From: an uncultured Candidatus Saccharibacteria bacterium
Lineage (GTDB): Bacteria; Patescibacteriota; Minisyncoccia; Minisyncoccales; CAZWEN01
NCBI GenBank assembly: GCA_964632775.1
Contig: CAZWEN010000011.1
Location: forward strand, 1 to 15,489
Direction of reading: 5' to 3'
Length of the DNA: 15,489 bases
Of the stretch, positions 1 through 15,489 are shown piece after piece. Positions within the stretch are counted from its first letter, which is position 1; each line of letters starts with the position of its first letter. Below the pieces are notes generated by a model, which did not search any database, was not told the origin of the DNA, and saw only the letters and a program-made list of their open reading frames with translations. The translations under genes and the position numbers were made by a program.

Positions 1-104
1 AGATTAATGGTTTTATACCAATCCATTCCCCCACTGGTAATCAAACTCCCGGCAAGAGCTACCAGAAAAACAATTAATGGAATAATAATATAATTTAACT
101 TCAT
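1..104 (-). CDS. membrane protein, N-terminal fragment (gene runs off the window start); tentatively TspO/MBR-like
   Basis: ATG at 102-104 on the minus strand. Hand translation MKLNYIIIPLIVFLVALAGSLITSGGMDWYKTIN... gives a hydrophobic helix then G-x-x-WY, reminiscent of TspO N-termini. Too truncated to confirm. TGGTAGAAT box lies 6 nt upstream of the ATG. Confidence 0.4.
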   Translation of the reverse strand, partial: MKLNYIIIPLIVFLVALAGSLITSGGMDWYKTIN

Positions 105-107
105 ATT

Positions 108-146
108 TTTATTCTACCAAAAAACCGCTTTCTTGACGATTTAAGA
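108..146 (-). promoter_or_regulatory. degenerate copy of the hairpin/T-run + TGGTAGAAT module, upstream of the truncated membrane gene
   Basis: Minus strand reads atcgtcaagaaagcggTTTTTTGGTAGAATaaaaatATG, with -10 TAGAAT at 116-111 and the ATG at 104-102. The stem is weaker than in the other copies. Confidence 0.45.
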
Positions 147-153
147 TTTTTAT

Positions 154-360
154 CTATTTTTCAAAGAAAAGAGAGATTGCAAATGCTGTGAACCCCGCCC
201 CAAGGCCTACAAACATACCAGCTGGTATGTTGTTTATTGCAAAACCAATTCCAAAACCCAGAAATAATCCTGCGGGAATAAAGAGAGCCCCTTTACCCTT
301 CTTGTCTTTTTTTTCTTTAATTTTTTCTTCTTCCATAAATTTTAAATTTTTAAAAGACAA
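154..360 (-). CDS. small Gly-rich membrane protein (hypothetical)
   Basis: ORF track 68 aa. Lys/Glu-rich N-tail, then hydrophobic Gly-rich segments (ALFIPAGLFLGFGIGF...GMFVGLGAGFTAFAISLFF). The track start at 360 is TTG; the first ATG is at 334-336 (MEEEK...), so the true start may be 336. Confidence 0.55.
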   Translation of the reverse strand: MSFKNLKFMEEEKIKEKKDKKGKGALFIPAGLFLGFGIGFAINNIPAGMFVGLGAGFTAFAISLFFEK

Positions 361-372
361 GACCTTTATATT

Positions 373-446
373 ATTCTACCAAAAAACCGCCTTCTTGGCG
401 ATTTTTTTTCGGGGCTCCCCTGGCTGGACGATGTTAGAACCTGTTT
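373..446 (-). promoter_or_regulatory. intergenic module: conserved 34-nt box + hairpin/T-run + TGGTAGAAT extended -10
   Basis: Minus strand reads aaacaggttctaacatcgtccagccaggggagcc (446-413), then AAAAAAATCGCC-aagaa-GGCGGTTTTTT (409-381), then TGGTAGAAT (-10 at 378-373). Sits between the 78-aa gene stop and the 68-aa gene. Confidence 0.6.
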
Positions 447-456
447 AAAAAAAAGG

Positions 457-693
457 TTATTTTTTTGACTTCTTAACAATATCAATAATGGCAAGAATCA
501 CACCTGTGCCTATTAAGCTATAACCTATTAATCGGTCATCTCCAAAAACAATTCCCGCAATGACAAATAAGAATGCAAGGGCAGCCAGTTTAGAAAGTGG
601 CTTTTGTTCTTTTTTTCTTCCCAGAATTACAACTATCGCAATTATAGCCAGTACAATAATGGATATTAAAATATAAATCTGTGAAGCGTTCAT
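457..693 (-). CDS. small integral membrane protein (hypothetical)
   Basis: ORF track 78 aa. Consecutive hydrophobic helices separated by RKKEQKP, ending in a KKSKK tail. ATG start; followed 10 nt downstream by the conserved 34-nt box and a hairpin/T-run. Confidence 0.6.
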   Translation of the reverse strand: MNASQIYILISIIVLAIIAIVVILGRKKEQKPLSKLAALAFLFVIAGIVFGDDRLIGYSLIGTGVILAIIDIVKKSKK

Positions 694-823
694 AGCAATA
701 TTAAAACCTGTTTTCTTTATTTAATAATAAATCATCCAGCAAAAAATTCAAGACCTAAATGTCGCTTTACATAGATTGCCCGTCTGTTTGAATAAATAAA
801 AATTGTTCAGCGATAGGCTTTTT

Positions 824-857
824 GGCTCCGGGGGATGGAGGATATTAGAATCTATTT
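824..857 (-). repeat. diverged copy of the conserved 34-nt box
   Basis: ggctccgggggatggaggatattagaatctattt matches 413-446 at 26 of 34 positions in an ungapped hand alignment. Starts 9 nt after the stop of the zinc-ribbon gene, the same position relative to a stop codon as the other copies. Confidence 0.5.
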
Positions 858-866
858 AAAAAAATT

Positions 867-1049
867 TTATTTCCCTATTTTTTCTAATTCCTTAAGGGCT
901 TTACAAACCGGGCAATAGCGATGAAAGTTTTTCCTAATGTTCTCTTCTAACTCAGGGGAAAATTTAGATATTTCAATCCAAAGCTCAAACTTAGTTTTGC
1001 AGACAGTACATTCTAATGCAATTTTTCTATAATTTTTGTTGTTATTCAT
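867..1049 (-). CDS. small zinc-ribbon protein (two CxxC pairs), hypothetical
   Basis: 60 aa with CTVC ... CPVC spaced about 30 aa apart. Begins 4 nt after the stop of the upstream DUF5661-like gene, so likely co-transcribed. GGGAGAAG Shine-Dalgarno-like sequence upstream. Confidence 0.6.
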   Translation of the reverse strand: MNNNKNYRKIALECTVCKTKFELWIEISKFSPELEENIRKNFHRYCPVCKALKELEKIGK

Positions 1050-1053
1050 ATTA

Positions 1054-1326
1054 CTATTTCTTCTCCCAATAATCTTCGGCTTCTTTTTCCATTCTATCTA
1101 ATCTTGTGTAGTAATCCGGGAATTCATTTAGATGAGCAAGGGCAATTTTCCCCGTCATTAAAGGATTGTCATCGGTAACATTAGTGTTGGGGTCACGAGT
1201 GCCATGTTCTAATTCTACATCCATTCCCATTCTGAATTGCTCAACATCAAATTTTGACCAATCAATTCCGAGGGTCTCGCCAATTTTTTTGGCTTCTTCG
1301 GTAGTAAAATGTTTTTTGTTTTCCAT
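1054..1326 (-). CDS. DUF5661-like small protein (hypothetical)
   Basis: Motifs MGMDVELEHG and IALAHLNEFPDYYTRL match my recollection of the DUF5661 family. The ORF track extends to 1362, but the ATG at 1324-1326 (MENKK...) has an AGGGAG Shine-Dalgarno 9 nt upstream. A TTGCGT-16-TAGAAT promoter-like pair ends only 2 nt before the 1362 ATG, so the shorter start is preferred. Confidence 0.65.
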   Translation of the reverse strand: MENKKHFTTEEAKKIGETLGIDWSKFDVEQFRMGMDVELEHGTRDPNTNVTDDNPLMTGKIALAHLNEFPDYYTRLDRMEKEAEDYWEKK

Positions 1327-1364
1327 TTTATTTTTCTCCCTTAATCTTTCAGCGCTGGGCATTT

Positions 1365-1392
1365 ATTCTAGAATTAAATAAATATTACGCAA
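1365..1392 (-). promoter_or_regulatory. sigma70-like promoter candidate for the DUF5661-like gene
   Basis: Minus strand reads TTGCGT (1392-1387), a 16-nt spacer, then TAGAAT (1370-1365). The left boundary of the duplication (1371) falls exactly between the two hexamers. Confidence 0.4.
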
Positions 1393-1454
1393 TATTAAAT
1401 GCGACTGAAAGACTTTTTGTTTATTTTTTATTTTCCGGACTTTTAATTTATTGA

Positions 1455-2132
1455 CTAAAAAATTGGTATTTCCAGCATTTGAACACCGGCTGGTAATTCA
1501 AACATACTGTCAGCGATATCACTAAAATCTATATTCTTTAACTCGGCTACTAAAGTGCCTTTGTCGGTAGCCGATTCTATTCTAATAAGTAACCCGTGCT
1601 CTATCCATACCCAGGACTTTGTCTCTTCTGTCTCGGTGGTATATTCGATGACCAGACAGGTCTTTCCATCCAGAATTTCAGTGCCAACAGTCACTGGATT
1701 ATATTTCATAATAGACTCGGATTGTTCTGTCGGAGATTCTCCTGCTGTTTCCTGAGCCTGGCCTAAACTTATTTTCATAGCCGTGTTTTCTGCCGGAAAA
1801 TATATATATGCCAACTGTTCACCCACGTCTACTGAATAGACCATACTCTTCCCTTCAAAAGTCCCTTCCATTCTCATTTTCTCTCCCTTCCGCCACATTG
1901 TTGTTGTAACTGCTGCCTCGCCAGGAGGAGTTACTACCATATCGTACTTTAAAGAGCTAATACCCACTGCCTTTCCCAAAATCGCAGTTAAAGATTCAAC
2001 CTCCTCTTCCTCTTCTTCTTCTTCGCCCAGTGGAACCACGCCTTCTTCTGCTTCTTTCTCTCCGCAGCCAGCGCCAACCAAAACCAAAACAGCTAAAAGT
2101 AAAATTGGAACGAAAACCGCTATTTTGCGCAT
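1455..2132 (-). CDS. secreted lipoprotein, copy A; tentatively LolA-like / lipoprotein-sorting-like fold
   Basis: Signal peptide plus lipobox MRKIAVFVPILLLAVLVLVGAG-C, then a poly-Glu linker (EEEEEEEEV). The C-terminal pattern (ILDGKTCLVIEY...WVWIEHGLLIRIE...FSDIADSMFELP) resembles LolA-like/DUF4367-type beta-sandwich proteins; the fold call is from memory only. G+C is markedly higher than in neighbouring genes. Confidence 0.8.
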   Translation of the reverse strand: MRKIAVFVPILLLAVLVLVGAGCGEKEAEEGVVPLGEEEEEEEEVESLTAILGKAVGISSLKYDMVVTPPGEAAVTTTMWRKGEKMRMEGTFEGKSMVYSVDVGEQLAYIYFPAENTAMKISLGQAQETAGESPTEQSESIMKYNPVTVGTEILDGKTCLVIEYTTETEETKSWVWIEHGLLIRIESATDKGTLVAELKNIDFSDIADSMFELPAGVQMLEIPIF

Positions 2133-2150
2133 ATTTTTATCTTTTAATTT

Positions 2151-2876
2151 TTAATTTTTTCGACCTTTGATTTTTTTAAAAAAATATCGACTTCCTATCG
2201 TTATTATACCAAAGATTATAATCAAAGATAACCACTGAGTCACGGATAAACTAAAATAGTGAGGGTCAGACAAGGGAGTGCCAGTAGAGCGGGTGAAATC
2301 TAAGAAAAATCGAGAAAAAGAATATAAAAACAGAAAAGAAAAAAATAACTGCCCCGGCTTTTTTAGCTTCGGTGTCAAAAACTTTAAAATTAAAAACAGT
2401 ATCAAGGCTGAAATTATTAAATATTCAGCTACCGGATGGCGAATCAGACCATCTGGCCAAATTATTCCCCAGGGTAAGGAGGTTTCTGCCCCCTGATGGT
2501 CATTGATTAAGGAACAGCCAATTCTGCCAATGGCAATGGATATTGGAGCTATAAATGCTGTCAAATCTGCGATTCGCCAAAATAATTTGAAATCAGTTTT
2601 AGTTAACTTAAAATAAAGGATTGCTGCAATTAAAACTCCCAAAAAACCTCCAAGAAAACTTAATCCTCCTTGCCCCAACAACTTTCCCCCAATCATTCCT
2701 CCCAAAAGAATCCAAATGGCCAACTTGTGAATAAAATCTGGTTCAATCCCCAGTTTTTTTGTTTTTTTTAAAACAAAAAGGTAGCCAATTAAAAAAGCTA
2801 GAGCAACAAAAATTCCCCAAGTATAAATAGTAACTGGGCCAATGACAAATTTATCAAAACAAAAATAAGGAATCAT
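2151..2876 (-). CDS. lgt: prolipoprotein diacylglyceryl transferase, copy A
   Basis: 241 aa polytopic membrane protein with Lgt motifs GRIGCSLINDHQG, RHPVAEYL and YSFSRFFLDFTR. Its ATG overlaps the lspA stop (ATGA at 2873-2876). Confidence 0.85.
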   Translation of the reverse strand: MIPYFCFDKFVIGPVTIYTWGIFVALAFLIGYLFVLKKTKKLGIEPDFIHKLAIWILLGGMIGGKLLGQGGLSFLGGFLGVLIAAILYFKLTKTDFKLFWRIADLTAFIAPISIAIGRIGCSLINDHQGAETSLPWGIIWPDGLIRHPVAEYLIISALILFLILKFLTPKLKKPGQLFFSFLFLYSFSRFFLDFTRSTGTPLSDPHYFSLSVTQWLSLIIIFGIITIGSRYFFKKIKGRKN

Positions 2877-3355
2877 TTTTTAAAAAAATTAACCACTAAA
2901 ATTATAATTCCTCCAATAATCATTAGGTCAGCGATATTAAAAATAGAAATGGGAAGAATGAAAATCTTCATCCAATCAATCACGTAGCCGAAAAATATTC
3001 TATCAAAAAAATTGCTCAAGCCACCTAAAATAATTAAAGAAAATCCGGTCGTCAAAAGAAAATCTTTTTTCTGCCAACTCCTGAAAAACAAAAAAAGGAG
3101 CAGCAATAATACTGCCCCGATTAAAAAATAAAGCAAAGTCGAATTAAAGGAAATAAAATATAAATTCGGATTTTTAAATAATTCCAGTTCGATTAAATTC
3201 CCTAAATAGAAATTTGGATGATTTAAAACAAACCATTTACTAAGACGGTCTAAAATTATCAAACTTAAACTGGAAAATATTAAAAACCTTAGACTATGCG
3301 AAGCATTCAAGGTTCTCGCTGAAGGCGGGGTTCTTATTTTGTTTTCCTGTTTCAT
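2873..3355 (-). CDS. lspA: lipoprotein signal peptidase II, copy A
   Basis: 160 aa with LspA motifs DRLSKW, GGLSNFFDRIFFGYVIDW and FNIADLMIIGG (catalytic Asp contexts). Carries an unusual ~24-aa N-terminal tail partly encoded by a dispersed 52-nt element. An in-frame TTG start inside that element is possible. Confidence 0.9.
   Translation of the reverse strand: MKQENKIRTPPSARTLNASHSLRFLIFSSLSLIILDRLSKWFVLNHPNFYLGNLIELELFKNPNLYFISFNSTLLYFLIGAVLLLLLFLFFRSWQKKDFLLTTGFSLIILGGLSNFFDRIFFGYVIDWMKIFILPISIFNIADLMIIGGIIILVVNFFKK
3287..3338 (-). repeat. 52-nt dispersed element, copy in the lspA-A 5' coding region (in frame)
   Basis: Minus-strand reading: aataagaaccccgccttcagcgagaaccttgaatgcttcgcatagtctaagg. 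Encodes IRTPPSARTLNASHSLR. Contains an ATGC-TTC-GCAT hairpin. Homologous to 6915-6968 in the opposite orientation. Confidence 0.75.
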
Positions 3356-3391
3356 TAATTTATATAAGAAATGAGCTCGAAATATTATTTT

Positions 3392-3463
3392 ATCCTACCA
3401 AAAAATCGCCTAACTGACGATTTTTTGCGAGCTCCCCTGGCTGGACGATGTTAGAACCTGTTT
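3392..3463 (-). promoter_or_regulatory. intergenic module: conserved 34-nt box + hairpin/T-run + TGGTAGGAT extended -10 (copy in unit A)
   Basis: Minus strand reads aaacaggttctaacatcgtccagccaggggagc (3463-3431), then the hairpin AAAAAATCGTC-agtta-GGCGATTTTTT (3426-3400), then TGGTAGGAT (-10 at 3397-3392). Nearly the same module occurs at 373-446. Confidence 0.6.
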
Positions 3464-3475
3464 GAGTTCAAAATA

Positions 3476-3513
3476 AAAAGTCCCAAACTTAGATTACTCT
3501 AAGGGGGACTTTT
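3476..3513 (-). terminator. intrinsic terminator of the 62-aa ORF (copy A); the stem contains its stop codon
   Basis: AAAAGTCCC (3476-3484) pairs with GGGACTTTT (3505-3513), and inner CTTAG (3488-3492) pairs with CTAAG (3499-3503). On the minus strand the stem is followed by TTATTTTG. The stop codon at 3499-3501 lies inside the stem. Confidence 0.65.
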
Positions 3514-3687
3514 CTGCCTCCACCTAGCAACTTCTTCTTTATCTAAAAAATGTTTACACTTTGAAGCTAATTCTTCCCAGAGTTTTTCTAATTCATCTAA
3601 ACTTCCAGATCGAGAAAACCTCTTAATCATTTCACCTTGTACGGTTCGGCAAACAATGTAACAGTAACATTGATTACAGCTTCTCAT
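3499..3687 (-). CDS. 62-aa Cys-rich hypothetical protein, copy A
   Basis: MRSCNQCYCYIVC... followed by a helical acidic/basic region. Best Shine-Dalgarno in the window (AAAGGAG, 4 nt before ATG), its own TTGATT-16-TATAAA promoter and its own terminator hairpin. I recognise no family. Confidence 0.6.
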   Translation of the reverse strand: MRSCNQCYCYIVCRTVQGEMIKRFSRSGSLDELEKLWEELASKCKHFLDKEEVARWRQKSPP

Positions 3688-3719
3688 TTTTCTCCTTTCT
3701 TATTAAGAACTAGTTTATA

Positions 3720-3747
3720 TTTATACTCCTTTTTTCAAAAAAATCAA
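3720..3747 (-). promoter_or_regulatory. sigma70-like promoter of the 62-aa ORF (copy A)
   Basis: Minus strand reads TTGATT (3747-3742), a 16-nt spacer, then TATAAA (3725-3720), about 32 nt upstream of the ATG at 3687. Confidence 0.55.
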
Positions 3748-3789
3748 GTCCTCGCCACTACCTCAGTGGCAAAAAATTAAAGGAATAGT

Positions 3790-3820
3790 AAAAAACCGTT
3801 AGTTTCCCTAACGGTTTTTT
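3790..3820. terminator. bidirectional intrinsic terminator hairpin (copy A)
   Basis: AAAAAA-CCGTTAG-tttcc-CTAACGG-TTTTTT: a 7-bp perfect stem flanked by an A-run and a T-run. Lies downstream of lipoprotein copy B on the minus strand. Confidence 0.7.
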
Positions 3821-3954
3821 CTTGTTAATTAAATGTCGCACAGAATGCCCAGTGAGGGGCTTTTGTTTTGGAATTAAACGAACATCACGCAATGTTAAAT
3901 GCGATTGACAGACTTTTTGTTTATTTTTTATTTCCCAGACTTTTAACTTATTGA

Positions 3955-4632
3955 CTAAAAAGTTGGTATTTCCAGCATTTGAACACCAGCTGGTAATTCA
4001 AACATGCTGTCAGGAATAACACTAAAATCTATATTCTTTAACTCGGCTACTAAAATGCCTTCGTCGGTAGTCGATTCTATTCTAATAAGTAATCCGTGCT
4101 CTATCCATACCCAGGACTTTGTCTCTTCTGTCTCGGTGGTGTATTCGATGACCAGACAGGTCTTTCCATCCAGAACTTCAGTGCCAACAGTCACTGGATT
4201 ATATTTCGTAATAGATTCAGATTGTTCTGTCGGAGATTCTCCTGCTGTTTCCTGAGCCTGGCCTAAACTTATTTTCATAGCCGTGTTTTCTGCCGGAAAA
4301 TATATATATGCCAACTGTTCACCCACGTCTACTGAATAGACCATACTCTTCCCTTCAAAAGTCCCTTCCATTCTCATTTTCTCTCCCTTCCGCCACATTG
4401 TTGTTGTAACTGCTGCCTCGCCAGGAGGAGTTACTACCATATCGTACTTTAAAGAGCTAATACCCACTGCCTTTCCCAAAATCGCAGTTAAAGATTCAAC
4501 CTCCTCTTCCTCTTCTTCTTCTTCGCCCAGTGGAACCACGCCTTCTTCTGCTTCTTTCTCTCCGCAGCCAGCGCCAACCAAAACCAAAACAGCTAAAAGT
4601 AAAATTGGAACGAAAACCGCTATTTTGCGCAT
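3955..4632 (-). CDS. secreted lipoprotein, copy B (8 aa substitutions in the last 88 residues vs copy A)
   Basis: Same signal peptide, lipobox and poly-Glu linker as copy A. Differs by M>T, I>V, A>T, K>E, T>I, D>V, A>P and I>T near the C-terminus. Confidence 0.8.
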   Translation of the reverse strand: MRKIAVFVPILLLAVLVLVGAGCGEKEAEEGVVPLGEEEEEEEEVESLTAILGKAVGISSLKYDMVVTPPGEAAVTTTMWRKGEKMRMEGTFEGKSMVYSVDVGEQLAYIYFPAENTAMKISLGQAQETAGESPTEQSESITKYNPVTVGTEVLDGKTCLVIEYTTETEETKSWVWIEHGLLIRIESTTDEGILVAELKNIDFSVIPDSMFELPAGVQMLEIPTF

Positions 4633-4650
4633 ATTTTTATCTTTTAATTT

Positions 4651-5376
4651 TTAATTTTTTCGACCTTTGATTTTTTTAAAAAAATATCGACTTCCTATCG
4701 TTATTATACCAAAGATTATAATCAAAGATAACCACTGAGTCACGGATAAACTAAAATAGTGAGGGTCAGACAAGGGAGTGCCAGTAGAGCGGGTGAAATC
4801 TAAGAAAAATCGAGAAAAAGAATATAAAAACAGAAAAGAAAAAAATAACTGCCCCGGCTTTTTTAGCTTCGGTGTCAAAAACTTTAAAATTAAAAACAGT
4901 ATCAAGGCTGAAATTATTAAATATTCAGCTACCGGATGGCGAATCAGACCATCTGGCCAAATTATTCCCCAGGGTAAGGAGGTTTCTGCCCCCTGATGGT
5001 CATTGATTAAGGAACAGCCAATTCTGCCAATGGCAATGGATATTGGAGCTATAAATGCTGTCAAATCTGCGATTCGCCAAAATAATTTGAAATCAGTTTT
5101 AGTTAACTTAAAATAAAGGATTGCTGCAATTAAAACTCCCAAAAAACCTCCAAGAAAACTTAATCCTCCTTGCCCCAACAACTTTCCCCCAATCATTCCT
5201 CCCAAAAGAATCCAAATGGCCAACTTGTGAATAAAATCTGGTTCAATCCCCAGTTTTTTTGTTTTTTTTAAAACAAAAAGGTAGCCAATTAAAAAAGCTA
5301 GAGCAACAAAAATTCCCCAAGTATAAATAGTAACTGGGCCAATGACAAATTTATCAAAACAAAAATAAGGAATCAT
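4651..5376 (-). CDS. lgt: prolipoprotein diacylglyceryl transferase, copy B
   Basis: Protein identical to copy A, with no nucleotide differences found. Confidence 0.85.
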   Translation of the reverse strand: MIPYFCFDKFVIGPVTIYTWGIFVALAFLIGYLFVLKKTKKLGIEPDFIHKLAIWILLGGMIGGKLLGQGGLSFLGGFLGVLIAAILYFKLTKTDFKLFWRIADLTAFIAPISIAIGRIGCSLINDHQGAETSLPWGIIWPDGLIRHPVAEYLIISALILFLILKFLTPKLKKPGQLFFSFLFLYSFSRFFLDFTRSTGTPLSDPHYFSLSVTQWLSLIIIFGIITIGSRYFFKKIKGRKN

Positions 5377-5855
5377 TTTTTAAAAAAATTAACCACTAAA
5401 ATTATAATTCCTCCAATAATCATTAGGTCAGCGATATTAAAAATAGAAATGGGAAGAATGAAAATCTTCATCCAATCAATCACGTAGCCGAAAAATATTC
5501 TATCAAAAAAATTGCTCAAGCCACCTAAAATAATTAAAGAAAATCCGGTCGTCAAAAGAAAATCTTTTTTCTGCCAACTCCTGAAAAACAAAAAAAGGAG
5601 CAGCAATAATACTGCCCCGATTAAAAAATAAAGCAAAGTCGAATTAAAGGAAATAAAATATAAATTCGGATTTTTAAATAATTCCAGTTCGATTAAATTC
5701 CCTAAATAGAAATTTGGATGATTTAAAACAAACCATTTACTAAGACGGTCTAAAATTATCAAACTTAAACTGGAAAATATTAAAAACCTTAGACTATGCG
5801 AAGCATTCAAGGTTCTCGCTGAAGGCGGGGTTCTTATTTTGTTTTCCTGTTTCAT
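5373..5855 (-). CDS. lspA: lipoprotein signal peptidase II, copy B
   Basis: Protein identical to copy A. ATGA overlap with lgt-B at 5373-5376. Confidence 0.9.
   Translation of the reverse strand: MKQENKIRTPPSARTLNASHSLRFLIFSSLSLIILDRLSKWFVLNHPNFYLGNLIELELFKNPNLYFISFNSTLLYFLIGAVLLLLLFLFFRSWQKKDFLLTTGFSLIILGGLSNFFDRIFFGYVIDWMKIFILPISIFNIADLMIIGGIIILVVNFFKK
5787..5838 (-). repeat. 52-nt dispersed element, copy in the lspA-B 5' coding region
   Basis: Identical to 3287-3338 and part of the duplicated unit. Confidence 0.75.
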
Positions 5856-5891
5856 TAATTTATATAAGAAATGAGCTCGAAATATTATTTT

Positions 5892-5963
5892 ATCCTACCA
5901 AAAAATCGCCTAACTGACGATTTTTTGCGAGCTCCCCTGGCTGGACGATGTTAGAACCTGTTT
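5892..5963 (-). promoter_or_regulatory. intergenic module (box + hairpin/T-run + extended -10), copy in unit B
   Basis: Identical to 3392-3463. Confidence 0.6.
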
Positions 5964-5975
5964 GAGTTCAAAATA

Positions 5976-6013
5976 AAAAGTCCCAAACTTAGATTACTCT
6001 AAGGGGGACTTTT
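5976..6013 (-). terminator. intrinsic terminator of the 62-aa ORF (copy B)
   Basis: Identical to 3476-3513. Confidence 0.65.
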
Positions 6014-6187
6014 CTGCCTCCACCTAGCAACTTCTTCTTTATCTAAAAAATGTTTACACTTTGAAGCTAATTCTTCCCAGAGTTTTTCTAATTCATCTAA
6101 ACTTCCAGATCGAGAAAACCTCTTAATCATTTCACCTTGTACGGTTCGGCAAACAATGTAACAGTAACATTGATTACAGCTTCTCAT
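5999..6187 (-). CDS. 62-aa Cys-rich hypothetical protein, copy B
   Basis: Identical to copy A, including promoter, Shine-Dalgarno and terminator. Confidence 0.6.
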   Translation of the reverse strand: MRSCNQCYCYIVCRTVQGEMIKRFSRSGSLDELEKLWEELASKCKHFLDKEEVARWRQKSPP

Positions 6188-6219
6188 TTTTCTCCTTTCT
6201 TATTAAGAACTAGTTTATA

Positions 6220-6247
6220 TTTATACTCCTTTTTTCAAAAAAATCAA
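6220..6247 (-). promoter_or_regulatory. sigma70-like promoter of the 62-aa ORF (copy B)
   Basis: Identical to 3720-3747. Confidence 0.55.
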
Positions 6248-6289
6248 GTCCTCGCCACTACCTCAGTGGCAAAAAATTAAAGGAATAGT

Positions 6290-6319
6290 AAAAAACCGTT
6301 AGTTTCCCTAACGGTTTTT
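6290..6319. terminator. bidirectional intrinsic terminator hairpin (copy B), downstream of the 150-aa membrane gene
   Basis: Same CCGTTAG/CTAACGG stem as copy A; the T-run is one nt shorter. Confidence 0.7.
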
Positions 6320-6373
6320 CTTGTTAATTAAATGTCGCACAGAATGCCCGGTGATGGGCTTTTGCGGTTTTGA

Positions 6374-6826
6374 TTATTTTTTTTCTGAGATAACCTTTAT
6401 TACTTTAGATAATCTGGTAAAAAGAAAAATAATGGCTACTTCCACGGTGATAAGAGAAACTTCTCTCAGGAGCGCCACGGATATACCTTCTGGAGAGTAG
6501 CTAAAATAGTCCTTGGTTAGAAAATTGATAATATATAAAATAACAGTTAAGCCAATCCAAGAATAAAGGAAGTACTCCCCCTGTCTCTCTATCTTTTTTT
6601 CTCCCAGCCACCTTAACATTTCTTTATGAATAGAATAAACAAATAAAACTGCAACATAAAAGAAACCTATTTTAGAAGGGGGAAAATCTCCCCGACTAAA
6701 AAACTCCATTGTCACCATGAGCATCGCTATTAGGGTAATGGTGGCGCAAATCAAAAATAGGTGTTTATTTATGGTAAATTCTATTTCTCTTACCTTTTTT
6801 AATTTTTCTTCAGGGATTCGTGGCAT
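6374..6826 (-). CDS. integral membrane protein (about 4 TM helices), hypothetical
   Basis: 150 aa with four hydrophobic stretches (LFLICATITLIAMLMVT, IGFFYVAVLFVYSI, FLYSWIGLTVILYIINFL, VSLITVEVAIIFLF). TGGTAAAAT box 6 nt upstream of the ATG and no Shine-Dalgarno. Confidence 0.65.
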   Translation of the reverse strand: MPRIPEEKLKKVREIEFTINKHLFLICATITLIAMLMVTMEFFSRGDFPPSKIGFFYVAVLFVYSIHKEMLRWLGEKKIERQGEYFLYSWIGLTVILYIINFLTKDYFSYSPEGISVALLREVSLITVEVAIIFLFTRLSKVIKVISEKK

Positions 6827-6847
6827 ATTTTAATTTTACCACATTTT

Positions 6848-6876
6848 AATAAAAAGTCAAGCCCAAAATGGCTTGA
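6848..6876 (-). terminator. intrinsic terminator, probably ending the uppS operon transcript
   Basis: TCAAGCC (6857-6863) pairs with GGCTTGA (6870-6876), loop caaaat. On the minus strand the stem is followed by CTTTTTATT. Confidence 0.6.
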
Positions 6877-6914
6877 ATTGTAGTGTAATAAATAAGCGGT
6901 TAAACCGTCGTAAT

Positions 6915-6968
6915 AATAAGAACCTCTCGCTTCGCTCAAGAACCTTGAATGCTTTGCATAGTCTAAGG
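6915..6968 (+). repeat. 54-nt dispersed element, intergenic copy (inverted relative to the lspA copies)
   Basis: Plus strand reads aataagaacctctcgcttcgctcaagaaccttgaatgctttgcatagtctaagg. The first 10 nt are identical to the minus-strand lspA element, and the last 30 nt match with 1 mismatch, located in the hairpin loop. Confidence 0.75.
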
Positions 6969-6997
6969 GAGGAAAACTAAAAGACGAATTCTTTTGT

Positions 6998-7030
6998 GCC
7001 TCGAGTTAATCGAGGCTTTTCTTTTATTTT
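6998..7030 (+). terminator. plus-strand-oriented terminator-like hairpin overlapping the uppS stop codon
   Basis: GCCTCGA (6998-7004) pairs with TCGAGGC (7010-7016), followed on the plus strand by TTTTCTTTTATTTT. On the minus strand there is no T-run after the stem. No plus-strand ORF lies upstream. Confidence 0.4.
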
Positions 7031-7704
7031 CCAAATCTTCGCTGGCGCTGGGCATAATCTGCCAGAGCTTGATCTAAATCTGTTTCCGTAAAGGCTGGCC
7101 AGTATTTCTTACAGAAATAAAGTTCAGAATAGGCCGCTTGCCATATTAAAAAATTAGAAATACGTTGTTCCTCACCAGTTCTGATAATTAAATCAAGGTC
7201 AGAGGTCCAGAGATTCTGGGAAATTACATCTTCGGTAATCTTTTCAGGGAGGATTTTCTTTTCAATTATCTTTTTTATTGCTTCGGCAATTTCAGCCCTT
7301 CCCCCGTAACTCAAAGCAAAATTTAAAACCATTCCCTTATTATTTTTGGTTAACTCCTCGGCCTTCCAGATTGTTTCTTGGAGAAATTTTGGCAATCTTT
7401 CTTTTTGACCAATTATCCTTACTTTAATTCCTTCTTTGTGAAGTTCTTTTAGATTATCAGCTATAGCTGATTCAGCCAATTTCATCAAGAAATTTACTTC
7501 TCTCTTTGCTCTCTTCCAATTTTCGGTAGAAAAAACAAACAAAGTTAAAATCTTTACTCCTCGCTCTTTAGACCATTTTATTAACTCTTTTACCTTTGCC
7601 AAACCTTTTCTATGTCCTTCAAAAGCTGGCAATCCTTTTTCTCTGGCCCATCGGCGATTACCATCAATAATGATGCCCAAATGATAAGGAATGTTTTTTA
7701 TCAT
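7024..7704 (-). CDS. uppS: undecaprenyl (polyprenyl) diphosphate synthase, cis-prenyltransferase
   Basis: 226 aa with motifs IIIDGNRRWA, FSTENWKR and RTGEEQRISNFLIWQAAYSELYF. Its ATG overlaps the stop of the upstream reductase gene (ATGA at 7701-7704). Confidence 0.92.
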   Translation of the reverse strand: MIKNIPYHLGIIIDGNRRWAREKGLPAFEGHRKGLAKVKELIKWSKERGVKILTLFVFSTENWKRAKREVNFLMKLAESAIADNLKELHKEGIKVRIIGQKERLPKFLQETIWKAEELTKNNKGMVLNFALSYGGRAEIAEAIKKIIEKKILPEKITEDVISQNLWTSDLDLIIRTGEEQRISNFLIWQAAYSELYFCKKYWPAFTETDLDQALADYAQRQRRFGK

Positions 7705-8696
7705 ATTAAAAAATCACTTTCAATTTTAACATTTTTCGGCAAAATCCAGGGAAAATTAAATCCCAAAAAATAAACTATTTTAGTGGCAATTTTTGAAAAA
7801 ATAATTTTTGGCAAAAAAGTTTTTTTCATCTCTTTTTGATATTTTAAAAAATTTGGGAAATTTTTCAAGAGCGTTTCAGCTGCTATTAATCCCCAGATTA
7901 CCCCTCCCCCACTCCAGGGTTTGGTTAAACCAGCTGCATCACCACAGAGAGTTATCAAAGAATGTTTAGGAATTAAAAACCCTTGAGGGACTATTCCTGG
8001 CTCTAATTTATTTAGTCGAAGACTGTTTTTCCTTAAAAAATTTTCAAAAAGTGCTTTGGCTTCTTTGGGACTAGAAATTATTCCGTATTCTATTTCTTTG
8101 CCCCTAGGAATTTTCCAGATGAAGCCCTGTTTTTGAGGCCAGGTTTCAACAAAATTTGAAGAGTCGCTTTTTGAAATAAATCCCTGGATGGCTAACAGAT
8201 ATTTTGGTTCTGATAATCCTAAACTTTTTCTAACCACAGAATTTGGCCCGTCACAGCCAATAATTCTGTCAAATTTTTTTTGAAATGTAGCGAGGTCTTG
8301 CTTCGTTACGTTATGATTTAAAATAATTTTTACACCGGAATTCTCAGCCAATTCGGCTACCAGATTATCAAGTTCAAAATGGCTCATTACTAAAAGTTTT
8401 TTGGAAAATCTAACCTTTATTGTTTTTTTAGGGAGTCGAAGAACATTTGTTCTTCTCCACCCTTCGCTACACTCGGGTAAATGAATTAAAGCTGACTCTA
8501 TTTGATTTTGAATTAATTTTTGACTTTGGGGAATAAATTCTAAAATTCTTTCGGAAAAAAGTCCAGAACAGGCTTTTTTTCCGATTTTTTCTTTTTTTTC
8601 AAATACAGTTACTTGATGCCCTTTTTCAGCTAATTTCCAAGCTAAATAAAGTCCAGTTATCCCCGCTCCAACAATGGCCACTTTTTGAGATTTCAT
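7701..8696 (-). CDS. FAD-dependent oxidoreductase, geranylgeranyl reductase (GGR/ChlP/MenJ-like) family
   Basis: 331 aa. N-terminal Rossmann motif [41 protein letters not shown], and GDAAGLTKPWSGGGV, typical of the GGR family. Confidence 0.75.
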   Translation of the reverse strand: MKSQKVAIVGAGITGLYLAWKLAEKGHQVTVFEKKEKIGKKACSGLFSERILEFIPQSQKLIQNQIESALIHLPECSEGWRRTNVLRLPKKTIKVRFSKKLLVMSHFELDNLVAELAENSGVKIILNHNVTKQDLATFQKKFDRIIGCDGPNSVVRKSLGLSEPKYLLAIQGFISKSDSSNFVETWPQKQGFIWKIPRGKEIEYGIISSPKEAKALFENFLRKNSLRLNKLEPGIVPQGFLIPKHSLITLCGDAAGLTKPWSGGGVIWGLIAAETLLKNFPNFLKYQKEMKKTFLPKIIFSKIATKIVYFLGFNFPWILPKNVKIESDFLI

Positions 8697-8850
8697 TGAT
8701 TATTTCTTCAAATCTTATTGGTTCTTTCTCCTGCTGTTTAGCTATAATGTAACCCGCAGCAAAAGAAAGTAAAGAAATTAGGATAACGCCAATAACTAAT
8801 ATTATATCTGCCAGATTTTCTTTGACAAATTGTTTAATTTTTGCTAACAT
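8626..8850 (-). CDS. small single-pass membrane protein (hypothetical); its 3' end overlaps the reductase gene by 71 nt
   Basis: 74 aa: [37 protein letters not shown], a TM helix, then a polar tail. The last ~23 codons lie in an alternative frame of the GGR-family gene, so the functional part may be only the N-terminal ~50 aa. Confidence 0.4.
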
Positions 8851-8858
8851 TTTTATAT

Positions 8859-9140
8859 ATGGCTAAGACTAAAGCAGGTGGAGCTACAAAATTAGGAAGG
8901 GATTCTCTACCAAAATATCTTGGGGTTAAGCTTTTTGAAGGACAAAAAGCTAAATCTGGCAGTATTATTATTCGCCAAAGGGGCACCAAATTCCTTCCCG
9001 GAAAAAATGTCAAACTGGGTAAGGATGACACCTTATATGCCTTGAAAGAAGGTATGGTTCGGTATAGGACAAAGAGAATCAAACGTTTTGATAAATCTCA
9101 AAGAAAAGCAAAAATTGTTAGCGTTGAACCGAGCACATAA
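8859..9140 (+). CDS. rpmA: 50S ribosomal protein L27
   Basis: [62 protein letters not shown] matches the L27 signature. The track start at 8841 is TTG; the ATG at 8859 gives the canonical N-terminus. TGCTAACAT box 8 nt upstream. Confidence 0.92.
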
Positions 9141-9153
9141 AGCATTATGTGCT
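9132..9153. other. perfect 9-bp palindromic hairpin shared by the convergent rpmA and pyrG 3' ends
   Basis: AGCACATAA (9132-9140) pairs with TTATGTGCT (9145-9153), loop agca. Each arm encodes Ser-Thr-stop for the gene on its strand. No flanking U-tract on either strand. Confidence 0.6.
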
Positions 9154-10773
9154 TCGGTGAATAGCTGCTTTAATGAATTCTCTAAACAACGGATGCGGCC
9201 GTAAAGGCCGTGATTTAAATTCCGGATGAAATTGGGTTCCGAGGAAAAAAGGATGGTTTTTCAATTCGATAATCTCAACCAGGTCTTTTTCGGGGTTTAT
9301 TCCGGCCATAACCATTCCCTTGGCCTCCAGGACCTCTCTAAACTCATTATTTAGCTCGTAGCGGTGGCGATGGCGCTCAGAAATGTCAGAGGTCCGGTAG
9401 GTTTTAAAACTAAGGGTTTTTGGCTTTATTCTGCATTTATACGCCCCTAATCTCATTGTCCCGCCATATTTTTTCTCTTTTAAAAGAGCTTTTTGTTCTG
9501 GCATAACGTCAATAACCGGGTACTTACAATTAGGAGAAAACTCAACCGAACCTGCTCCCTTTAAACCGCAAACATTTCTAGCCCATTCTACTACGGCCAG
9601 TTGCATTCCTAAACAAAGTCCCAAATAAGGGATTTTTTGTTTTCGGCAGAATTCAATGGCCTTTATCTTCCCTTCCACTCCCCTCTTACCAAAACCACCA
9701 GGAATAATTATTCCATCATAATCTTTTAACTCTTCAACTAGCCGGGATTTTTTTTCATAACCTTCGGCTCCTATCCAATGAATTTCCGGTTTTCTTTTAT
9801 GGAACCAGGCAGCATGTTTGATGGCCTCGATTATTGAAATATAAGAATCCATTAAAGTAAATTTTCCACTTTCAAAATATTTTCCAACTATGCCAATTTT
9901 GATGGGTTTTTTAGCATTTTCAACAGTATTTACCAATTTTTTCCAATCCTTTAAGTTATTTTTTCGAGGCCGCAAATCAAATTTTTTTAAAATTCGATTG
10001 CCTAAATTTTCTTTTTCAAAATTAACTGGAATTTCATAAATTGATTCGATGTCGGGAGCAGAAATAACATCTTTGATATCTACATTACAAAAAATGGAGA
10101 TTTTTCTTTTTCGGGGAGGGTCTAAGGGAACCCGAGCTCGGCCCAGAATAATATCGGGCTGAATTCCTGCTTCGTTTAGAGTTTTAACCGCGTTTTGGGT
10201 TGGTTTAGTTTTCATTTCGCCAATCATTTCTGGAATTGGTAAATAACTAACTAAAATAAAAAGAATGTCTTTGGGATTTGCCAACCGCATCATTCTGGCT
10301 GCTTCCAAAAATAGCATATTTTGATATTCACCCACTGTCCCCCCAATCTCAATTAAAACAAAATCAGCCTTGTTTTTTTGGGCTGCTTTTTTTATTCGCG
10401 ATATAACTTCATTAGGAATATCGGGAACTACCTCTACGCATCTCCCTTCGTATTCTAAATTTCTTTCTCTGCTTATCACTGCCTGATAAACTCGGCCAGT
10501 GGTAATATAATTATCAGTAGTTAAATTTTCATCTAAAAATCTTTCATAATTTCCAACATCCTGGTCGCATTCTATTCCGTCATCAGTTACAAAAATTTCC
10601 CCATGTTCAATGGGGTTCATGGTTCCAGCATCGACATTGATATAGGGGTCAATTTTAACTGCCGTAACCTGGAAGCCTTTTGACTTTAGAATCCTTCCAA
10701 TTGAAGCCACGGCTACCCCTTTGCCAATGCCAGACATTACGCCACCAGCAACAAAAATATATTTTGATGTCAT
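9145..10773 (-). CDS. pyrG: CTP synthase
   Basis: 542 aa. N-terminal [16 protein letters not shown], glutamine amidotransferase GLCLGMQ, and HRHRYE. Its ATG overlaps the rplI stop (ATGA at 10770-10773). Confidence 0.95.
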
Positions 10774-11228
10774 TCTGGTTTCTCTTCTTCTTTGGTAACG
10801 ATTACTTTTATTTCAGCTTCTAAATTATGCTCAAACTTAATTTTTACTGGAAATTCTCCCAGTTCTTTAATTGGTTCTTTTAACTCAAGTTGAATTTTTT
10901 TAATTTCAAAGCCGAGTTCTTTTAATTTCTCAAAAATTTTTTGAGAAGTAATTGATTCAAAAAGTTGGCCTTCTTCGCCGATTTTAACTGGGATAATCAC
11001 CTCCTGACCATCAATTGCACTAGCCAACCCTTGGGTTTTCTTTAATTCTTCCTCCGCCTTTTGGATTTCTGCTTCTTTTTGAGTTTCTAACCATAAAAGA
11101 GCTTCTTTTTCAGCTTTTTTTGCTAAACCTTTAGGAATCAAAAAATTCCTGGCATAGCCATCTTTAACTTCCTTAATCTCGTATTTCTTTCCCAGATTCT
11201 CAACGTCTTGTAATAGTATAACCCGCAT
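10770..11228 (-). CDS. rplI: 50S ribosomal protein L9
   Basis: [36 protein letters not shown] is a canonical L9 N-domain, followed by a long helix and a C-domain. Confidence 0.9.
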
Positions 11229-11242
11229 ATTATTAAATTATA

Positions 11243-12421
11243 TTATAAATTTTTAATTATTTCAATTGCCTTATCCAGCTGAGGATCTCTCTCTTCTTCA
11301 TAATCTTCTTCAGTCATTTCTATTTTTATATCTGGCTCCAACCCCTTGTCAGCGATGAGCTCGCCGTTTGGGGTTAGCCATTTGGCTACGGTTATTTTTA
11401 AAGAAGACCCTTCTCTTAATCTTTCTAATTCCTGGACTGAACCTTTACCAAAAGATTTCTCTCCAATTAATTTTATACCCTGATTGTCTCTCAAAGCGCC
11501 AGCTAAAATTTCTGAACCTGAAGCTGAACCCTGATTTATTAAAATCACTACTGGATATTCTGCAAAACTAGCATTACCTTCGGCTTTGTAAATCTTCTGC
11601 TCCTTAATTTGACCAAAATCCTCAATGACCACAATTTGTCCTCTTTCCAAAAACCAACCAGCAATATCCTGAGCTACCTCCAAATAACCACCAGGATTAT
11701 TTCTTAAATCCAAAATTATTTTTTGGCAGGGGCTGGTTAAAATTTCAATAGCCGCTTCCCTAAAATCAAAACTGGCTTTTTCTGAAAAATGATAAAGTTT
11801 TAAATAGGCAATATTTTCATCGATTATCTCCCATTTTAAAGAGGGAATCTCAATTACTCCTCTGACAATTTTAATTTCTTTAGTGGTTCCCCATTCTTCC
11901 CGCCAAATGCTTAAAATTACTTCCGTCCCCTTTTCACCCCGGATTAAATTAACTGCTTCATCAAGAGTAATATCAAGGGTTAAAGTATCATCCACTTTGA
12001 TGATTTTGTCTCCGGCTCGCAATCCGGCTTTTTGAGCCGGAGTCCCTTCCAGAGGAGCAATTACCTGAAGTTGGCCTTTTTTTTGACCAATTTCCATGCC
12101 CACCCCCTCAAAAGTTCCCTTAACATCTTCAATAAATCTTTTAGTGTCTTCTGGGTTTAAAAAGGTAGTATAAGGATCTTCCAAAGACTTGACCATTCCC
12201 GAAATTGCTCCGTAAATCATTTCTTGAATATCAAACTTTTCTTTATCAGCAAATTTTTCTTGGAGCTTATCCCAGGTTTCCCAAAAGAGGGAAAAATCAA
12301 TTTCTTCGGGAGGACAAATTTTACATTGGGATTTTCCAAAATAAAAACCTCCACCAAAACTGGCCAGAATAACAATAACTAAAAAAATTGAGATTAAAGT
12401 TTTTTTAACTAAAAAAGGCAT
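11243..12421 (-). CDS. S41 family C-terminal processing peptidase (Ctp/Prc-like) with N-terminal membrane anchor and PDZ domain
   Basis: 392 aa. TM anchor LISIFLVIVILASFGGGFYF, PDZ-like GLRAGDKIIKVDD, Ser region NQGSASGSEILAGAL and Lys region GEKSFGKGSVQ. Confidence 0.88.
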   Translation of the reverse strand: MPFLVKKTLISIFLVIVILASFGGGFYFGKSQCKICPPEEIDFSLFWETWDKLQEKFADKEKFDIQEMIYGAISGMVKSLEDPYTTFLNPEDTKRFIEDVKGTFEGVGMEIGQKKGQLQVIAPLEGTPAQKAGLRAGDKIIKVDDTLTLDITLDEAVNLIRGEKGTEVILSIWREEWGTTKEIKIVRGVIEIPSLKWEIIDENIAYLKLYHFSEKASFDFREAAIEILTSPCQKIILDLRNNPGGYLEVAQDIAGWFLERGQIVVIEDFGQIKEQKIYKAEGNASFAEYPVVILINQGSASGSEILAGALRDNQGIKLIGEKSFGKGSVQELERLREGSSLKITVAKWLTPNGELIADKGLEPDIKIEMTEEDYEEERDPQLDKAIEIIKNL

Positions 12422-12484
12422 ATCTAATCCCTTTTATAACAAAATTTAGATAAAAAGTCTATGTGTTTTTTTCTTTTGGCAATT

Positions 12485-14185: not shown

Positions 14186-15489
14186 ATTCCGTTCAATTTT
14201 CTTTTAAGTTCTCGGCCGTTTTTCTCTGTTTTATCTTTTATTTCTTTTAGAGCTGCTCTTTTTCGGCCAAGGCTTTTCTGACGTTTATGCCAAAAGAAAA
14301 CAATCACTAAAATAGCAACGATTAGAGTTAAGAAGATTAAAATTACCTTCCACCAGGGAAGAAAAAATGTCCAAATATTAATTCCCCTTTTGGTAATATA
14401 GAATATTTTTTCAACTGGAATAACTTCAATTTTCTCACTTGAATCTTGCCAATTCATCGCTCGATCAAAAGCTCTAACCATTACCCCATATTCTCCAGTA
14501 TCTAAAGAAGGCAACTTATAAGGAGAAGATACTTCAACAAAAAATCCAGTTTCCTTTTTCTGAGGAGCTTCGGTCAAATCAATAAGCTTTAGCTCATAAT
14601 GGTCTAGACCAGAAAGACTATCAGTAGTGATAAAAGAAACTATTGGTTCTTTAGCAGTCATCACCGGAGACCTTAAAGTTGGTTCGAAAGAAAGAGCAAA
14701 AACAGCCGGGGGAGTAGTGTCAATTAGCAAAATATAATGAGTTACTCCTCCCCAGACATCTCCCTTTTTAGCTTTAATGTGAAAATACCGGATTCCATCT
14801 TCCAGGTCAGTGTAAGAAACTGAAGTATAATCTCCTTCAGAAATATTATCGGGCACTCCGTAAAAGCTATCATCAATGCTATAATTAAAATCTATTACCC
14901 CCTCTTCCTTTTCCCAGGAAAGAGTAGGAGAATTGTTGTTATACCATTTATTTTGATCAGGATGAGTGGGAGAAAAAACTTTGGGCCCTTCAGGAGGAGG
15001 GATAATAATTTTGTAAACTCCCCTTCCTATTGAGCTCAAAATATTAGTTCCCTTTCCATCATCTAAAAGAACTTGAGAAGAATCTAAAATGGAAACTACC
15101 GCTTCCCCAGGGTTAATGGCTCGAAAAGTAATGGTCGAAACTAAACCAGAGGAAGTATTAATTCCTGGGGAAGGTGCTCCTCCCTGAAAAAAGGCCTTCC
15201 CCTCAATATTGGAAAAAGTGGGCTGAGAAATCCAGACAGCAATGAAAGACCTTCCGGCAGTTGGACTGGCTATTTGAAGTTTTCTTTGATTAAATTTTAA
15301 ATCTACTTTTACGGCATTAACATTGTTTCCTCCGGTATTGACAAATATTGAAACATCAAAAGTGCTACCTACAAAAAAGGTGCCTGACTGGGGAGAGAGA
15401 TAAAGAGAAGCCCCCTGAGCTTCAACAAAATCCTTTCCAGCAAAAAAAAGAAAAAATAGGATAAATGATATTAAGAATGTCTTTCTCAT
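14182..15489 (-). CDS. cohesin-domain surface protein, shorter paralog with C-terminal TM anchor
   Basis: 435 aa. The ATG sits exactly at the window edge (15487-15489). Signal peptide (..FVEA/QGA), cohesin-like domain (ASLYLSPQSGTFFVGSTFDVSIFVNT...LLDDGKGTNIL), THPDQNKWYNNNSPTLSW module, TM helix (VILIFLTLIVAILVIVFFW), and a basic tail. Confidence 0.75.
   Translation of the reverse strand: MRKTFLISFILFFLFFAGKDFVEAQGASLYLSPQSGTFFVGSTFDVSIFVNTGGNNVNAVKVDLKFNQRKLQIASPTAGRSFIAVWISQPTFSNIEGKAFFQGGAPSPGINTSSGLVSTITFRAINPGEAVVSILDSSQVLLDDGKGTNILSSIGRGVYKIIIPPPEGPKVFSPTHPDQNKWYNNNSPTLSWEKEEGVIDFNYSIDDSFYGVPDNISEGDYTSVSYTDLEDGIRYFHIKAKKGDVWGGVTHYILLIDTTPPAVFALSFEPTLRSPVMTAKEPIVSFITTDSLSGLDHYELKLIDLTEAPQKKETGFFVEVSSPYKLPSLDTGEYGVMVRAFDRAMNWQDSSEKIEVIPVEKIFYITKRGINIWTFFLPWWKVILIFLTLIVAILVIVFFWHKRQKSLGRKRAALKEIKDKTEKNGRELKRKLNGI

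Follow-up and report, generated by a model that had tools for sequence, protein, structure and literature searches.

Amplification of lspA makes Escherichia coli resistant to LspA inhibitors; the amplified segments measure 89 kb to 3 Mb, are flanked by direct repeats and are lost in few passages (Pantua et al. 2020, PMC7482066). False direct repeats and haplotype mix-ups, for their part, are documented outputs of metagenome assemblers (bioRxiv 10.1101/2025.04.22.649783), and false duplications are described for diploid assemblies as well. Here we analyse a stretch of 15,489 nt (contig CAZWEN010000011.1 of assembly GCA_964632775.1, positions 1 to 15,489, deposited as an uncultured Candidatus Saccharibacteria bacterium), referred to as the window, in which a cassette consisting of a 62-aa Cys-rich open reading frame (ORF), lspA, lgt and a lipoprotein gene is found twice, head to tail. 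Based on the comparison with independently assembled contigs we consider it rather likely that the second cassette is an assembly composite of two lineages, looped via a short repeated terminator module, and not a gene amplification. The sequence does contain the repeat, but the organism probably does not.

The locus has traits in common with several described systems. As in the unstable lspA tandem amplifications that cause heteroresistance in E. coli, the window contains a head-to-tail lspA repeat bounded by direct repeats, an arrangement consistent with homologous recombination. The E. coli amplifications, however, arise under drug selection in culture, whereas the unit in the window is 2.5 kb long and belongs to an uncultured bacterium of the candidate phyla radiation (CPR) with no known selection, one copy is a cross-lineage hybrid, and the repeated unit itself is of doubtful existence. 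With false duplications and strain mix-ups the locus shares a long direct repeat with an identical core, edges that correspond to two co-occurring variants, and its absence from other assemblies. Those documented cases were produced by long-read assemblers and revealed by read clipping, whereas the present one is known from contig comparison. Finally, short GC-rich hairpins (GCCC-N6-GGGC plus a terminator hairpin) lie in many spacers, co-oriented with the genes, and flank the cassette in the window as well as in relatives, which is reminiscent of REP and other terminator-like intergenic repeats; the modules of the window, however, were matched to no described REP/BIME family (no Rfam match).

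Results

Two head-to-tail copies with an identical core and diverged edges

Self-comparison of the window at an offset of 2500 nt yields a head-to-tail repeat, about 1371-3870 and 3871-6371, that is far above chance (Table 1). Each unit holds the 62-aa ORF, lspA, lgt and a LolA-like lipoprotein gene, and the four gene pairs (1455/3955, 2151/4651, 2873/5373 and 3499/5999) are all offset by 2500. Two complete cassettes had been reported in an initial annotation of the window, and both this arrangement and the identities given to the genes hold, with 2,095 nt matching exactly at offset 2500, family profiles matching and a lipobox, LVGAGC, in the lipoprotein. The two copies are not uniform, though, as a clean duplication was taken to imply: they differ at 25 sites in the left edge and by two single-nucleotide polymorphisms (SNPs) and two indels in the right one. 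In the left edge (1373-1719 versus 3873-4219) the differences are spread over 347 sites, 10 of 82 in the intergenic spacer and 15 of 265 in coding sequence, the latter affecting 7 codons synonymously and 8 non-synonymously. On the right a T6/T5 indel at 3815-3820/6315-6319 shifts the offset to 2499, and the right-hand ~50 nt additionally contain the SNPs, at 3851 and 3856, and a 3-nt indel at about 3865. The edges thus diverge by 7% and about 6%, while the core is 100% identical.

In agreement with the initial annotation the unit spans from spacer to spacer, its right end lying 1-3 nt from the stop codon of the 150-aa membrane protein gene, and neither gene calls nor family profile searches detected a transposase or integrase encoded in 1-7000. 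No terminal inverted repeats bound the unit, the sole inverted repeat (30 nt, 3287/5787 versus 6939) not bordering it. The left boundary is not sharp, as weak similarity extends leftward to about 1350. It had been placed between the -35 and -10 boxes of the DUF5661 gene, a placement undermined by the likely true start of that gene, ATG at 1326.

Table 1. Coordinates of the features discussed, in window positions.
Feature	Position	Strand	Remarks
Lineage-A segment	1-1744	n/a	p68, p78, p60 and DUF5661 genes, degenerate g element (1350-1372), spacer, last 88 lipoprotein codons; match to L004/L005/L006
Copy-1 lipoprotein gene, 225 aa	1455-2132	-	LolA-like/DUF4412, lipobox LVGAGC; hybrid with B-type residues 1-137 and A-type residues 138-225
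A/B switch interval	1720-1744 (25 nt)	n/a	also left end of identical core
Copy-1 core, 2,095 nt	1720-3814	n/a	100% identical to 4220-6314
lgt copy 1, 241 aa	2151-2876	-	PF01790, E=1.5e-37; alignable to E. coli Lgt 5AZB
lspA copy 1, 160 aa	2873-3355	-	Peptidase_A8 PF01252, E=7e-20; 15-aa N-terminal insertion
E77 spacer module, copy 1	3390-3463	-	terminator plus extended -10 box; repeat families D2/D3; alignment with L047
62-aa Cys-rich ORF (p62), copy 1	3499-3687	-	CxxCxCxxxC
Terminator module (a)	3736-3870	-	g element GCCC-N6-GGGC (3846-3863); A6/T6-flanked 13-bp hairpin (3790-3820); second hairpin plus T7 (3737-3775)
Spacer 3' of copy-2 lipoprotein gene	3871-3954	-	left end is the initially annotated junction; spanned by L001 and L002 at 100%
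Copy-2 lipoprotein gene	3955-4632	-	B type throughout; exact protein on L001, L002 and 27,147-nt NCBI contig
lgt copy 2	4651-5376	-	duplicate of copy 1 at offset 2500; family match
lspA copy 2	5373-5855	-	duplicate of copy 1; family match
62-aa ORF, copy 2	5999-6187	-	duplicate of copy 1
Terminator module (b)	6236-6371	-	begins directly past the stop of the 150-aa gene; differs from (a) by T5/T6, 2 SNPs, 3-nt indel
150-aa membrane protein gene (m150)	6374-6826	-	right flank of repeat; position conserved in relatives

The left and right parts of the window match different lineages

Independent contigs for comparison were obtained by exact-protein look-ups. The right part of the window, 3828-15489, is reproduced with 0 mismatches in 11.6 kb by three contigs of JGI sample 3300031351, which span window positions 7606-3828 (L001), 11500-7603 (L048) and 15489-11515 (L051). 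Contigs L002, L003 and L052, derived from the Logan runs SRR8556706 and SRR8556701, likewise show no mismatch to the window, and we refer to this strain as lineage B. The left part, 54-1744, is 99.7% identical (5 mismatches) to contig L004 of the NCBI metagenome-assembled genome (MAG) GCA_964598345.1 and 99.4-99.5% identical to L005 (SRR9700624) and L006 (JGI 3300031643), together termed lineage A. From 1745 on the identity to L004 falls to about 90%. The change occurs within a short interval: copy 1 shares the nucleotides of L004, not those of copy 2, at 1708, 1716 and 1719, whereas from 1745 on it agrees with copy 2 against L004. Judged by these matches, the window is lineage A left of 1744 and lineage B right of 1745. 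Copy 1 is a hybrid, with its left edge and the whole left flank coming from the other lineage, which had been missed in the initial annotation. Exact lineage-B proteins and exact left-flank proteins were never returned from one same sample by the exact-protein look-ups, and a literature search on the sample and run accessions found no paper.

Lineage A itself has a single cassette. L004, L025 and L034 tile by 100% overlaps and give the order FAD reductase gene (FADred)-uppS-lspA-lgt-lipoprotein-DUF5661, the cassette being only 75-90% identical to that of the window and UppS showing 42% amino acid identity. This bears on the idea of an old duplication, the middle of which was homogenised by gene conversion while the edges diverged, since an identical centre with diverged edges is the expected look of concerted evolution. 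The copy-1 edge, however, is 99.7% like the only cassette of lineage A, located between uppS and DUF5661, and is thus an orthologue from another organism rather than an old paralogue; moreover, no relative has a second copy at the locus. An old duplication is therefore very improbable, and the single-copy tiling of lineage A refutes it. The repeated core is identical and the differing parts match distinct lineages found separately, as is to be expected from an artefact.

Repeated terminator modules flank the cassette in its native state

The cassette in the window is flanked by modules (a) and (b). The two share about 79-115 nt of identical sequence and differ by 2 SNPs and 2 indels in all. 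Direct repeats capable of mediating unequal crossover are thus present on both sides. At 3870/3871, where module (a) meets the spacer of copy 2, a novel junction with nothing but microhomology had been proposed. In the single-copy loci L031, L050 and L020-23, however, lipoprotein gene, spacer and GCCC-N6-GGGC element (g element) are contiguous across the position equivalent to 3871|3870, the spacer between gene and g element measuring 84 nt in L031 and L050. The joint at 3870/3871 is therefore not new, being contiguous sequence in relatives with one cassette, and the novel junction expected from a true duplication is not found there.

Sequence homologous to module (a) lies downstream of the lipoprotein gene in the single-copy loci L031, L007, L008 and L050, and the A/T-flanked hairpin (window 3842-3753) is also located 3' of this gene in L007, L008 and L031. 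The g element follows m150, too, in L020-23, and in these loci and L043 a module of GC hairpin, terminator and extended -10 box occurs 5' of lspA as well as 3' of the lipoprotein gene. Going by these alignments, a cassette bracketed by repeated spacer modules is the native state. The sole diagnostic joint is that of module (a) into the promoter of the 62-aa ORF at 3735, and it is seen in the window only.

By inspection of about 20 loci we defined two families of spacer modules, E77 (terminator hairpin plus TGnTAnnAT box) and AAAGCCC-N6-GGGCA, which are always co-oriented with the genes. In the window, spacer modules are located at 109-142, 371-446, 815-857, 3390-3463 and 5890-5963 and the g motif at 3846-3863 and 6345-6362; L050 carries the g motif at 403-420, 737-754 and 1354-1371. 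Up to three copies per 1.5 kb are present in relatives, on both sides of the cassette. One hairpin is situated 5' of the 150-aa gene here (6857-6876) but 3' of it in L047, indicating that modules move between spacers.

Independent assemblies of lineage B do not reproduce the second copy

The lineage-B contigs L001 and L002 pass 3871|3870 but end at 3828 and 3821, respectively, inside module (a). L002 is 2,445 nt long and corresponds to window 6265..3821. We ran a de Bruijn unitig simulation with k=31, which we take to be the k of the Logan assemblies, for several genome models. The model in which the cassette and module (a) are followed by other sequence, joined at 3735|3736, resulted in a unitig of 2,445 nt, 3821-6265, i.e. 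exactly L002. The window as given predicts unitig breaks at 1720/4220 and 3460/5960. These breaks do not occur in L002, indicating that the copy-1 edge and the left flank of the window are absent from that run and that the chromosome exits after the module. Modules flanking the cassette, together with a simulation that gives L002 only if there is another exit after the module, are what a cycle in the assembly graph would be expected to show.

L002 is also nearly a circle of the unit, being 55 nt short, which would suit a mobile or excisable 2.5-kb element, i.e. a composite transposon or a circular intermediate that was captured in dimeric form. The near-circle is fully explained by the two module copies, though, and there is neither a transposase or integrase nor a pair of terminal inverted repeats; in addition, all relatives have the cassette in the chromosome and in conserved gene order. 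A mobile element is thus hardly credible, and we rejected it on the absent mobility genes and the module explanation of L002.

The protein records of a second NCBI assembly list a contig of 27,147 nt with exact RplI, PyrG, FADred, UppS, m150, p62, LspA, Lgt and the B-type lipoprotein, but without CtpA, the hybrid lipoprotein, DUF5661 and p78. This gene content implies that the contig ends near 11.3-12.4 kb in window terms and continues for at least 16 kb beyond the cassette into sequence other than the left flank of the window. Altogether, the second copy is not reproduced in any independent assembly of the same strain (JGI, Logan, second NCBI assembly). We also looked for the sequence following the module in lineage B, designated X. 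Searches with the XerD-like recombinase, which follows the homologous hairpin in L008, and with the DUF5661 homologue yielded no match on the 27,147-nt contig among the best 120 matches each, both families being very widespread in CPR genomes. A look-up with the 62-aa ORF brought up no additional contig that links the module to the ORF.

Breaks between the JGI contigs of lineage B lie at ~11500-11515, inside ctpA, and at ~7603-7606, in the FADred/uppS overlap, with no repeat visible at these positions. In window terms the 27-kb NCBI contig ends at 11.2-12.4 kb, again inside ctpA or shortly ahead of it. The shared breaks may stem from strain variation or from a gap in the coverage of ctpA.

Related loci have one cassette and variable downstream neighbours

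Copy number in relatives, which the initial annotation had named as a check on the duplication, is one cassette per locus in all 39 related loci (31 from metagenomes and 8 from MAGs). The order FADred-uppS-(150-aa gene)-lspA-lgt-lipoprotein is conserved among them, whereas the region 3' of the lipoprotein gene varies by lineage and contains DUF5661, a pair of XerD-like recombinases, an SPFH protein, a convergent 108-aa ORF or a 78-aa ORF. These changing neighbours mark the sequence 3' of the lipoprotein gene as a hot spot of recombination.

Variable regions of this kind are located at window 1054-1372, L008:5530-9111, L023:3524-4514, L046:829-1226, L050:311-1270 and L049:2494-2811, and in L049 a MamF-like gene takes the place of the lipoprotein gene. 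The MAG JAUWAW01 (Candidatus Nealsonbacteria CSMAG_1304) contains two ~95%-alike lspA-lgt-MamF-like-lipoprotein loci, L040:8991-11344 and L041:9777-12974, on two contigs of equal coverage (13.3x and 13.9x), with lspA truncated in one of them. This pair reflects either a genuine dispersed duplication or the binning of two strains into a single genome.

A proposed cycle through the modules versus a possible recent duplication

The composite may have come about as follows. Lineage B would supply window 1745-15489, its true order presumably being uppS, 150-aa gene, module (b), one cassette, module (a) and then sequence X. Due to the near-identity of modules (a) and (b) the assembly graph would contain a cycle, with a path leading out of the cassette end and into its beginning again. 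The contig deposited would round this cycle once, re-using the same 2.1-kb core, and the path would then leave through the 3' end of the lineage-A lipoprotein allele into the lineage-A flank, the source assembly probably having been built from samples with both lineages. The loop may have been made by the assembler itself or in a contig-merging or gap-closing step, and the same error, or else an existing recombinant strain with a single copy, may be the origin of the joint between B core and A edge. Re-use of one core would explain why the copies are 100% identical there, and the composite would equally account for edges that each match one separately found lineage, zero SNPs relative to the B strain and the lack of reproduction elsewhere.

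Several points weigh against this interpretation. We infer the loop and do not see it in reads, and since one 2.1-kb sequence cannot appear two times in the output of a pure unitig assembler, the source pipeline must have included a repeat-resolving, scaffolding or merging step; from a real duplication, in turn, a correct repeat resolver would arrive at this very contig. The simulation cannot count copies, as a model with two cassette-module units followed by X (model M3) yields the same unitig, and its k value is an assumption, although one that the exact fit to the 2,445 nt of L002 supports. The content of the 27,147-nt contig was deduced only from the 'longest contig' fields of protein records, as exact-protein look-ups returned neither this contig nor that of the window. 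Finally, the A/B switch takes place in just 25 nt of shared sequence, while exact runs of up to 48 nt exist elsewhere. Since 25 nt are too short for a graph chimera at k>=27, the switch probably reflects a real recombinant molecule with a hybrid lipoprotein gene, or else a step of gap closing or contig merging. For the same reason the switch is unlikely to be a simple k-mer chimera, and it stays unexplained by an artefact unless one of these two sources is assumed.

Alternatively, the window could display a real and very recent tandem duplication, in which unequal homologous recombination between modules (a) and (b) doubled the unit of 62-aa ORF, lspA, lgt and lipoprotein gene and a lineage-A flank was added. 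The left edge of copy 1 and the flank would then stem from the partner chromosome or from later recombination with lineage-A DNA, and both copies would retain the promoters and terminators of their spacers, doubling the dosage of LspA and Lgt. The classic substrate for such an event, flanking direct repeats of about 115-135 nt, is present, and lspA amplifications with flanking direct repeats are known (PMC7482066). With two entries into the core and two exits from it, tandem order is the sole output of a repeat resolver if there is no other exit, and a switch within 25 nt of identity resembles biological recombination and not a k-mer chimera. Moreover, the locus is a recombination hot spot with varying downstream neighbours and mosaic lipoprotein alleles, and one related MAG has two versions of it. 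On the other hand, a duplication and the import of a foreign flank, both of them rare, would have to coincide at one locus, yet there are 0 SNPs over 11.6 kb relative to a strain that shows neither. The product of an (a) x (b) crossover should end in module (a)-X, but the window ends in lineage-A sequence with no module. The structure is found in none of the JGI, Logan and second NCBI assemblies, all relatives have a single cassette per locus, and a perfect direct repeat of 2.1 kb is unstable without selection (PMC7482066). We thus regard a real duplication as a tentative alternative that is on the whole unlikely.

Proteins of the cassette and neighbouring features

The product of lspA is identified as LspA (signal peptidase II, Peptidase A8) by its profile match and two catalytic aspartates: the motifs NFFDR and FNIAD both align to LspA 6RYO. 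The match to TIGR00077 (E=5e-16) is under the trusted cut-off of that profile. LspA of relatives comprises 145 aa and does not have the 15-aa N-terminal insertion (TPPSARTLNASHSLR). Within this in-frame insertion lies one arm of the 30-nt inverted repeat (3287-3316 and 5787-5816 versus 6939-6968, 29/30 complementary), the other arm being located in the spacer between uppS and the 150-aa gene. The inverted repeat is restricted to lineage B (L001-L003) and could serve long-range RNA pairing or be the relic of a small inverted-repeat element.

Alignment of Lgt with 5AZB showed that the equivalents of Arg143 and Arg239 are retained, whereas the His103 position is occupied by Leu (FHGGL to FLGGF) and the Asn146 position by Cys (GRLGN to GRIGC), as in CPR relatives. 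All four positions are, as we assume, signature residues of Lgt. With 241 aa in the window and 243 aa in L023 the protein is about 20 aa shorter than in L008 (263 aa). The only contig on record with the exact hybrid lipoprotein (P0002) is an NCBI contig of 15,536 nt, which bears the flank genes of the window as well and is evidently the source of the window. The lipoprotein alleles P0001-P0005 are mosaic at their C-termini.

Profile searches with the 62-aa ORF resulted in no family match, and the ORF is found upstream of lspA only in lineage B and L047 (L047:1894-2082). These two versions share 97% nucleotide identity, with 2 differences in the 64-nt upstream region, the rest of the L047 contig being about 83% identical. 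Two of the substitutions in the ORF are synonymous and two non-synonymous, a pattern compatible with both a coding and a non-coding ORF.

The window has a G+C content of 34%, all genes of interest are on the minus strand, and the closest genomes are CPR MAGs labelled Nealsonbacteria or "Saccharibacteria". Read from right to left, genes for two large surface proteins, ctpA, rplI, pyrG (with rpmA on the plus strand), FADred, uppS and the 150-aa membrane gene precede the two successive sets of 62-aa ORF, lspA, lgt and lipoprotein gene, which are followed by DUF5661 and three small ORFs. The DUF5661 ORF (1054-1362) was called at 102 aa, its homologues having 89-92 aa; the true start is probably ATG at 1326, with AAGGGAG ahead of it, and the protein is 80-99% conserved in very many CPR genomes. 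A tRNA scan and an Rfam scan of the window gave no match.

Discussion

The tandem cassette is probably not a real biological feature, and the existence of a second copy is doubtful. An assembly artefact had been named as an option in the initial annotation and is, in the form of a composite, the reading we now favour. The adaptive gain in lspA dosage proposed there finds no counterpart in the comparisons, as no relative has tandem cassettes and no independent assembly of the same strain contains a second copy; nothing at the locus indicates selection. The case has cautionary value in that short repeated terminator modules and co-occurring lineages can give a deposited MAG contig a hybrid gene and a tandem duplication that looks plausible. 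Such cases are diagnosable without reads by tiling independent assemblies and reasoning from contig ends.

A doubtful but biologically distinct picture is that of a Nealsonbacteria-like CPR population with a fresh tandem duplication of its lipoprotein-maturation operon, brought about by module crossover and accompanied by an imported flank, possibly under the influence of a natural product targeting LspA. If true, this would be a rare natural case of an uncultured bacterium with a reduced genome amplifying the dosage of its two core enzymes of lipoprotein processing, and it might be a footprint of globomycin- or myxovirescin-like compounds in sediment.

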